Positions 42,123 to 43,308 of a DNA stretch of 64,000 nt are shown here, in pieces. The notes under the pieces are model-generated. The model worked only from the letters and a program-made list of their open reading frames with translations. It made no database searches and was not told the DNA's origin. The translations under genes were made by a program, and so were the position numbers. Source of the stretch: Eledone cirrhosa (Eukaryota); assembly GCA_964016885.1 (NCBI GenBank), contig OZ024742.1, forward strand, positions 125,488,001 to 125,552,000, in the 5' to 3' direction. How positions within the stretch are numbered: the stretch's first letter is position 1; each line of letters begins with the position of its first letter.

Positions 42123-43308
42123 ATAAAAACAAATAACGAAACGAAATTAAATTTCGTTTCGCTTCTAACTCACTTTTGTATGACTGACGCTTAAACAATT
42201 AAGTTAAAGTGTACATCTACATATGTATACGGAAGTATTAGTATGCATATAAATACACACATGTATACATATGTACATGTACTCAGCTTTTCACTAGACA
42301 CTTTACAGTGAGTGTCAGCTAGTCTGTATGTAACCACACAGGCGGACCGGGTTTTAGAGTCATACGAGTTTTCAAGGAAAGACATTTCCTCTATTCTCCA
42401 GAGGGCCAGACAGGAATATTGGACTAGTTTCGATGTTATTACATCTCATCAGCAATATTTACCCATCTTCCGGCTTCTCTGGAGAATTGTAAAAGCACAT
42501 ATCGTTATATGCTTTTTCTATGAAAATTAGTAGTGGGTAGACTAATTTGCATAGAACGTGAGTCATTGTACGCACCGGTTCAGCGGAAACGATAAAAACA
42601 AATAACGAAACGAAATTAAATTTCGTTTCGCTTCTAACTCACTTTTGTATGACTGACGCTTAAACAATTAAGTTAAAGTGTACATCTACATATGTATACG
42701 GAAGTATTAGTATGCATATAAATACGCACATGTATACATATGTACATGTACTCAGCTTTTCACTAGACACTTTACAGTGAGTGTCAGCTAGTCTGTATGT
42801 AACCACACAGGCGGACCGGGTTTTAGAGTCATACGAGTTTTCAAGGAAACACATTTCCTCTATTCTCCAGAGGGCCAGACAGGAATATTGGACTAGTTTC
42901 GATGTTATTACATCTCATCAGCAATATTTACCCATCTTCCGGCTTCTCTGGAGAATTGTAAAAGCACATATCGTTATATGCTTTTTCTATGAAAATTAGT
43001 AGTGGGTAGACTAATTTGCATAGAACGTGAGACATTGTACGCACCGGTTCAGCGGAAACGATAAAAACAAATAACGAAACGAAATTAAATTTCGCCCTCT
43101 GGAGAATAGAGGAAATGTGTTTCCTTGAAAACTCGTATGACTCTAAAACCCGGTCCGCCTGTGTGGTTACATACAGACTAGCTGACACTCACTGTAAAGT
43201 GTCTAGTGAAAAGCTGAGTACATGTACATATGTATACATGTGTGTATTTATATGCATACTAATACTTCCGTATACATATGTAGATGTACACTTTAACTTA
43301 ATTGTTTA
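42123..43308 (-). mobile_element. Diverged family F array: two 469-bp monomers plus 34 bp, then an inverted 214-bp segment (43095-43308)
   Basis: Monomer starts at 42123, 42592 and 43061, homologous to the 27023 array. The inverted part is the reverse complement of ~42660-42873. Confidence 0.92.
42415..42459 (-). ncRNA. Minimal type I hammerhead, GUC triplet (second copy at 42884-42928)
   Basis: AATATTG-CTGATGA-GATGT-aata-ACATC-GAAA-CTAG-TC-CAATATT. Confidence 0.93.

Follow-up and report, generated by a model that had tools for sequence, protein, structure and literature searches.

PLE-type paired ends suggest that non-coding hammerhead arrays of family F in Eledone cirrhosa were likely copied in trans

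How does a non-coding tandem array that carries hammerhead ribozyme motifs come to end, on its 5' side, in an inverted copy of itself? The question is raised by a family F1 insertion at 42123-43308 of the window, by which we mean the whole stretch of DNA analysed here (64,000 nucleotides of Eledone cirrhosa, contig OZ024742.1). The original prediction had placed an inverted piece of ~214 bp at this end of the array and had seen in it the footprint of PLE integration. We confirmed that the piece is real: 43094-43308 is a reverse complement of F unit positions 70-284 (99.5% over 211 bp), and the two arms are joined via one shared G, with which the inverted arm measures 215 bp. As the F1 hammerheads are on the minus strand, the inversion lies on the 5' side of the array, and with the minus strand taken as sense both arms direct their 3' ends outward into (TA)n. 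A perfect 13-bp hairpin was found inside the F1 tail (42135-42163; z -3.9). Overall, the analysis below indicates that F insertions have two arms with fixed ends ~70 bases apart and that they were likely copied into (TA)n in trans by the RT/GIY-YIG machinery of PLEs. The features discussed are listed in Table 1.

Table 1 Position and strand of the repeat features discussed, numbered along the 64,000-nt window.
Feature	Position	Strand	Remarks
Hydra-type PLE family A stub (3', two-armed)	130..528	-	134-nt tail; hammerhead cut off at 5' side
Family A stub (two-armed)	9818..10140	+	arm 9932-10140 with type I hammerhead, long stem II (z -6.1)
Second Neptune-like PLE	22427..26270	-	inverted piece 26115-26270 is an internal fragment; tail-rule exception
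Family F2 array	27023..33122	-	13.0 units with 13 hammerheads; one arm, which ends at position 1
Family X insert, two-armed	36869..37174	+	~62-nt tail
(TA)n target tract, left of F1 insertion	42038..42122	.	
Family F1 long arm	42123..43094	-	469-bp non-coding units, 2.07 in tandem; outer 3' end = unit position 1; carries tail
Family F1 tail	42123..42191	-	69 nt between both fixed ends; at one end only
Type I hammerhead motif, F1 unit 1	42415..42459	-	core search
Type I hammerhead motif, F1 unit 2	42884..42928	-	core search
Family F1 inverted arm	43094..43308	+	runs from unit position 284 to 70; outer 3' end = inner start site
(TA)n target tract, right of F1 insertion	43309..45016	.	
Neptune-like coding PLE, 4128-bp unit	50765..59691	-	partial tandem + inverted arm 58871-59691, 44-nt tail
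Family G copy, 515-bp tandem unit, non-coding	59957..60480	+	partial hammerhead-like core
Hydra-type PLE family D stub (3', two-armed)	61741..62656	+	142-nt tail

Family F consists of a 469-bp non-coding tandem unit with a GC content of ~0.36 and no LTR. No ORF of at least 120 aa was found in the F arrays of the window and no RT + GIY-YIG ORF in the F unit. A strict core search returned 15 type I hammerhead motifs in these arrays, every one on the minus strand; the F1 motif is composed of CTGATGA, a 5-bp stem II, GAAA, a palindromic ACTAGT stem III, a GTC cut site and a 7-bp stem I. The F1 and F2 subfamilies are 87% identical and show a compensatory change in stem II, and no inversion was found at the F2 array of the window. 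With Rfam, the window gave 0 matches at the gathering threshold and, by E-value, HH9 alone, amid TA-driven miRNA noise; the HH9 score on the F2 copies (37.7 bits, E 6e-6) is below the gathering score of 52. A hammerhead is present in each tandem unit, over at least two consecutive units, which is the mark of a non-LTR retrozyme, and judged by its sequence family F is a member of this class. The predicted circular folds of the F units reached -152 and -155 kcal/mol, compared to -94 ± 5.5 for shuffles (30 shuffles of F2). Exact matches in the genome (3.0 Gb) numbered 899 for an F1 15-mer and ~9,490 for the F-type hammerhead core, with 0 for either control. An F-type array of ~31 units of 466 bp, representing a further subfamily (C1:5738326-5752444), and an F array of ~49 units of 469 bp (C1:127664701-127688965) both end in a short inverted arm, and one locus has arms of ~3 and ~49 units, the middle part of the array being unread. 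Arrays of this length may also owe some of their units to growth that followed insertion.

The ends and junctions of family F were tallied at 81 loci, out of a family with the core matches counted above; 57 were top-scoring matches, comprising 36 F1 loci (the window insertion included) and 21 F2 loci (the window array and 20 others), while the remaining 24 came from the first 100 pattern matches, picked by their order along the chromosome. Two arms were present at 58 loci and a single arm at 22, and one locus had neither end in view. Leaving aside two two-armed loci with one end unseen and one duplicate, 55 independent two-armed loci remained, and in 50 of them the end of one arm lay at unit position 1-6 and that of its partner at 69-80. 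Both ends fell in one class at 0/55, and the longer arm could be either one; if the ends were chosen independently, the chance of 50 complementary pairs would be 0.5^50. At the five loci that break the rule (L034, L044, L057, L060 and L311), the inverted pieces are short and stop at other sites. Each of the 22 single-arm loci ended at one or other of the two usual sites (13 and 9), and two such loci resemble one duplicated insertion. In the position-ordered sample, which was not selected by score, 20 of 26 independent loci were inverted.

The F tail is one-sided and 65-75 nt long. The 5' junctions (135 positions) were uniform over the unit (KS p 0.65), with one of them no more than 3 nt away from the hammerhead cut site (expected 2) and 10 inside the tail hairpin (expected 4), and the arm-arm junctions showed 0-4 nt of microhomology or short inserts. 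Target-site duplications, which are unreadable in pure TA targets, were found in non-TA targets at L043 (14 bp), L052 (12), L232 (up to 16) and L237 (12). Flanks were TA-rich on both sides (TA fraction >0.5) in 31 of 34 rule-following loci and AT-rich in the other three; TA-rich targets are not specific for PLE insertion, as LINEs of the same genome sit in TA too. No mirrored flanks were detected at the 34 loci tested. Some variants fit one template for both arms, namely 421T>C in all covered units at L032 and L037, 98C>T at L048 and 125A>G in matching units at L059, while those common to non-matching units at L031, L041, L229 and L231 fit a mixed multimer or later exchange. The sharing of variants between arms fits a circle as well as a multimer.

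Coding PLEs of the same genome served as positive controls. Six of the 12 Neptune-like loci fetched were two-armed, and together with the window copy all seven two-armed copies obeyed the tail rule (ends u4124-3 versus u4066-4085). The original prediction had attributed the F geometry to both coding Neptune-like copies of the window; this holds for the inverted arm at 58871-59691, but the piece at 26115-26270, although inverted, copies the internal stretch 23686-23832 and has no end at a start site. The Neptune-like ORF at 52661-54934 (minus strand) contains a long asparagine-rich insert, a feature known from rotifer Penelope elements according to the accessible text of PMC3846280. An 80-bp exact piece of the 3' end of a Neptune-like PLE was also observed at 43467-43546, in the TA tract to the right of the F1 insertion.

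Families A and D, represented in the window by 3' stubs, were traced to coding Hydra-type copies. The family A copy L156 (C7:66399500-66408500) has a unit of 6149 bp, which contains an intact 830-aa RT+GIY-YIG ORF (L156:1639-4129) and whose 3' region is long and of low complexity, and the family D copies L161 and L163 have a 3693-bp unit with a 627-aa open frame. The motifs of the 830-aa ORF (RWR, DKT, CNC-x5-C, CRLC, CNH, plus GIY-YIG at the C terminus) fit the Hydra clade, for which the available part of PMC8557442 gives an RWK-like motif, DKT, a CxCX5C linker, CxxC and CxH, and a (TA)n target; the CxCX5C linker and EN motifs were also seen in the family D frame. The Hydra-type assignment of both families is based on a reading of motifs. 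Pfam returned nothing on seven PLE frames and RVT_1 in both LINEs, so that the PLE identity rests on motifs read by eye. Compared to described Hydra elements (<3 kb), the family A unit is longer. Inverted arms were found within 1.8 kb at 9 of 30 family A loci, each with its end at r135-137, and r135 is also where two distant arms end; in family D, 12 inverted arms end at 1783-1790 and one at 1746. We conclude that the inversions of families A and D are ordinary cis PLE insertions. Because 40 copies are identical over their last 330 bp, family A is probably an active PLE, as far as can be told from copy identity. The hammerhead motifs of both families have a long stem II, and the family D motif scored no better than shuffles. 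Type I motifs with a stem II of ~100 nt (9932-10080 and 62350-62465, in the Hydra-type PLEs) escape standard core searches with short spacers. A third Hydra-type PLE (4781-9405; 4195-bp unit, 1.1 copies) is frameshifted and single-armed.

Negative controls were taken from other repeats of the same genome. Inversions were absent from 30 copies of an RTE-type LINE (12 truncated, 18 full length), from 16 copies of a second LINE with the 5' end in view (of 30; 14 out of view) and from 30 copies of a 604-bp SINE-like repeat, a weak control as its copies are full length by selection. Many of these copies adjoin TA tracts. Inversions are thus not equally common across the repeat classes found in TA; had they been so, the original prediction would have been contradicted. 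The first LINE contains RVT_1 and Exo_endo_phos domains (Pfam) and is what we take to be RTE-type; a full-length copy with a 1164-aa frame lies at 17607-21160, and the full-length copies genome-wide start with (TAT)n and a long T run (18/30).

The original prediction had further listed several inserts as non-coding hammerhead elements with the same geometry and had extended mobilisation in trans to them. Inverted pieces do exist at 480-527, 9932-10140, 36869-36962, 59957-60024 and 61741-62031 versus 62226-62514. Family F withstood the comparison as a non-coding hammerhead element, but the two family A inserts and the family D insert are stubs of coding Hydra-type PLEs, no hammerhead core was found in the family X insert of the window or in nine related copies, and the family G copy has a CTGANGA-C-GAAA core only, with no stem I. 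These inserts are accordingly no evidence for action in trans, two families acting in cis and two having no complete hammerhead.

Family G (3652 candidates in the genome) showed PLE-type ends with a spacing of 115 nt: of 23 distinct loci, 12 have clear ends at u515 and u400 and two more have them by eye, the remaining loci being single, complex or exceptions. The window copy is one of these exceptions, with both of its ends at the same site. A complete type I hammerhead was not found in family G, the conserved CTGANGA-C-GAAA (CTGATGA-C-GAAA) core having neither stem I nor stem II, and the family is possibly a ribozyme-decayed PLE parasite. Other family G sites are 11845-12426 and 14757-15339 in the window and loci L177-L200. 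Family X, for which a genome search gave no candidates, the window insert itself included, was studied via 14 chance loci; it was two-armed with a ~62-nt tail in several of them (L035, L131, L136, L269 and L275) and reaches at least 470 bp further upstream in L269.

L1 twin priming also yields 5' inversions. The partial tandem with a 5' inversion, which had been put forward as a PLE mark, was found as described, but the inversion by itself is not PLE-specific and it is the one-sided tail that is diagnostic. A PLE protein studied in vitro cuts and extends both target strands (Frangieh 2024, PMC11167929); its RT begins at two neighbouring sites inside the RNA that have no homology to the target, the genomic tail being the stretch between these two sites, a mark called unique to PLEs, and a dimer is predicted (PMC11167929). 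For family F, whose ends directly match this scheme, the proposed mobilisation in trans is supported by the two-site ends, by the like behaviour of the coding PLEs, by the lack of inversions among the LINE controls and by target-site duplications of 12-16 bp. The endonuclease would nick the target strands ~12-13 bp apart, and each nicked 3' end would prime reverse transcription internally on the F RNA, one per start site, the two sites probably being served by two halves of a PLE dimer. The RT would pass through many units without a stop at the hammerhead cut site, on a template that may be a monomer in circular form or a multimer left uncleaved; either template fits the junctions, which take no account of the cut site. 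The two cDNAs would be joined at their 5' ends, while extension of just one strand would produce a single arm. Only low-complexity matches were found between F and five coding PLE families, and for this reason we name no partner and do not claim derivation from a pLTR; by tail length, the Neptune-like family (~60 nt) is closer to F than the Hydra-type families (134-142 nt). A point against the PLE fit is that the F tail exceeds the 30-40 bp of the literature, as given in the accessible portion of PMC8557442.

An alternative explanation is that a coding PLE outside our sample has a long F tandem as its 3' end and that the F arrays are copies of it, truncated at the 5' side and mobilised in cis. 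Families A and D proved to be exactly such stubs and the F loci read number only 81, but a few dozen loci were enough to reach the ORF for A and D, whereas no ORF lies in F arms of 14.7, 13.5, 13.0 and ~49 units, and a locus may have two long arms. Moreover, 0/43 F loci (19 single-arm or exceptional and 24 position-ordered) run into a PLE or LINE frame by tblastn, nearby PLE frames are set apart by TA tracts, and at L322 F lies inside a PLE UTR with its own duplication, which makes the cis explanation improbable. At another locus (L051:454-3609), an F arm and a TA tract are central in a 99.4% inverted repeat of the 5' region of a Hydra-type PLE; this arm was either co-copied with the PLE or inserted at a PLE junction. 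Copying of the F RNA by an APE-type LINE (the RTE-type or the second LINE), with the inversions made by L1-style twin priming, is very improbable in our view. Both LINE families are abundant and young (1421 and 2428 candidates) and often lie in TA tracts, and, taken by itself, the window geometry would allow twin priming on a tandem template, with a gap of 38 nt. However, twin priming predicts a variable outer end that is tied to the stop of the first arm, while the outer end of F stays at 69-80 irrespective of where the junction lies; the LINEs themselves were never inverted in the control counts, and F has neither poly(A) nor a LINE-like 3' end. L1-type twin priming was dropped as a reading of the window insertion because the second end is fixed across loci.

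A reading of the inversions as artefacts of assembly or long-read fold-back, or as DNA hairpin rearrangements favoured by (TA)n, would agree with the location of all inversions in or near long TA tracts, with the several hairpins of the F unit and with the number of junctions in the tail hairpin, and the case for the F inversions is built on the assembly. A fold-back would mirror the flanks and the junction, whereas the flanks were unmirrored throughout and the junction positions differ between arms. The outer ends are offset by a family-specific distance, target-site duplications enclose both arms in non-TA targets, and LINEs and SINE-like repeats in TA tracts are free of inversions, so that we consider an artefact extremely improbable. 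The arrays of up to ~49 units, together with variants in subsets of units (L031) as expected from unequal crossing-over, could also suggest that F spreads as DNA, either through a rolling circle, in the manner of a Helitron, or as a satellite, with the hammerhead as a passenger. We give this next to no credence in view of the hundreds of dispersed near-identical F loci with target-site duplications, head-to-head arms and PLE-type tails; local expansion could lengthen arrays but leaves their ends unexplained.

Copying of the F RNA in trans by PLE machinery is therefore the explanation that we favour. The rule of one site per arm was seen in F and in another non-coding tandem family, as well as in three families of coding PLEs. 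We tentatively suggest, as an idea that may well turn out to be wrong, that a 469-nt hammerhead circle is a minimal Penelope substrate, on which a dimer seated on one circle would use one site per nicked target strand and produce, in a single event, two back-to-back concatemers of up to dozens of units; the one-site-per-arm rule would then be a general PLE law, and the tail length would tag the enzyme of the parasite.

Animal hammerhead repeats reportedly first became known from a newt satellite in 1987. The link of the enzyme to these repeats has so far been based on co-occurrence and shared ribozymes, and direct genomic evidence comes from an integration mark that is specific to PLEs and sits on a young, non-coding family of high copy number. 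The F ends give exact predicted RT start sites on the 469-nt RNA, the complementary use of the two sites constrains how PLEs handle both target strands, and the tail with its two-site ends offers a simple test to class unknown tandem repeats as PLE parasites.

In the accessible portions of these sources, non-LTR retrozymes are defined by Cervera and de la Pena 2020 with PLEs as 'strong candidate' mobiliser (PMC7229834), and this candidacy is repeated by Craig 2021 (PMC8557442). Similar to the metazoan non-LTR retrozymes described in that part of PMC7229834, F has tandem non-coding units with a type I hammerhead, a GC content <50% and no LTR, as well as target-site duplications >4 bp (12-16), a self-paired predicted circle and co-occurring PLEs; unlike them, its 469-bp unit is just above the range of 150-450 bp. 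Circular RNA was demonstrated for those retrozymes, whereas the F circle is predicted from sequence, and the available text of PMC7229834 makes no mention of two-armed insertions or fixed tails. The F unit does lie inside the 51-972 bp range of the preprint by Li, Clavereau and Pollet 2026 (10.64898/2026.07.22.740005). In the part of that preprint at hand, the argument for a PLE origin draws on co-occurrence in vertebrates and on their pLTR phylogeny, not on an analysis of junctions, the mechanism is left to be elucidated and local tandem amplification is leaned towards; compared to its pLTR-based argument, no similarity was detectable between F and the pLTRs of the PLEs sampled here. Our search found no literature reporting a PLE tail or two-arm rule on retrozymes, its coverage being thin for subscription journals. 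The hypothesis that PLEs mobilise retrozymes is already published, while the junction-level evidence from F and the strict one-site-per-arm rule look new.

Mobilisation in trans of sequence located between pLTRs is described in the available text of Arkhipova 2013 (PMC3846280). The Chlamys elements such as MRC1 resemble F in being non-coding and multicopy head-to-tail, and the MRC1-type elements are pLTR-forming and attributed to PLEs; unlike F, they are algal, their 3' end resembles that of autonomous partners and their clade is mostly without hammerheads (PMC8557442, accessible part). Published PLE insertions are of coding elements with 30-40-bp tails, whereas F is non-coding with a 65-75-nt tail (PMC3846280 and PMC8557442, as far as available). 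One site per arm is strict in F, compared to the absence of a strand difference in start site in vitro (PMC11167929). Like PLE insertions as described in PMC11167929 and in the accessible text of PMC3846280 and PMC8557442, F combines a partial tandem with an inverted 5'-truncated copy, head-to-head arms and a one-sided tail, an AT-rich target, a target-site duplication of ~8-10 bp or longer, and two internal RT starts.
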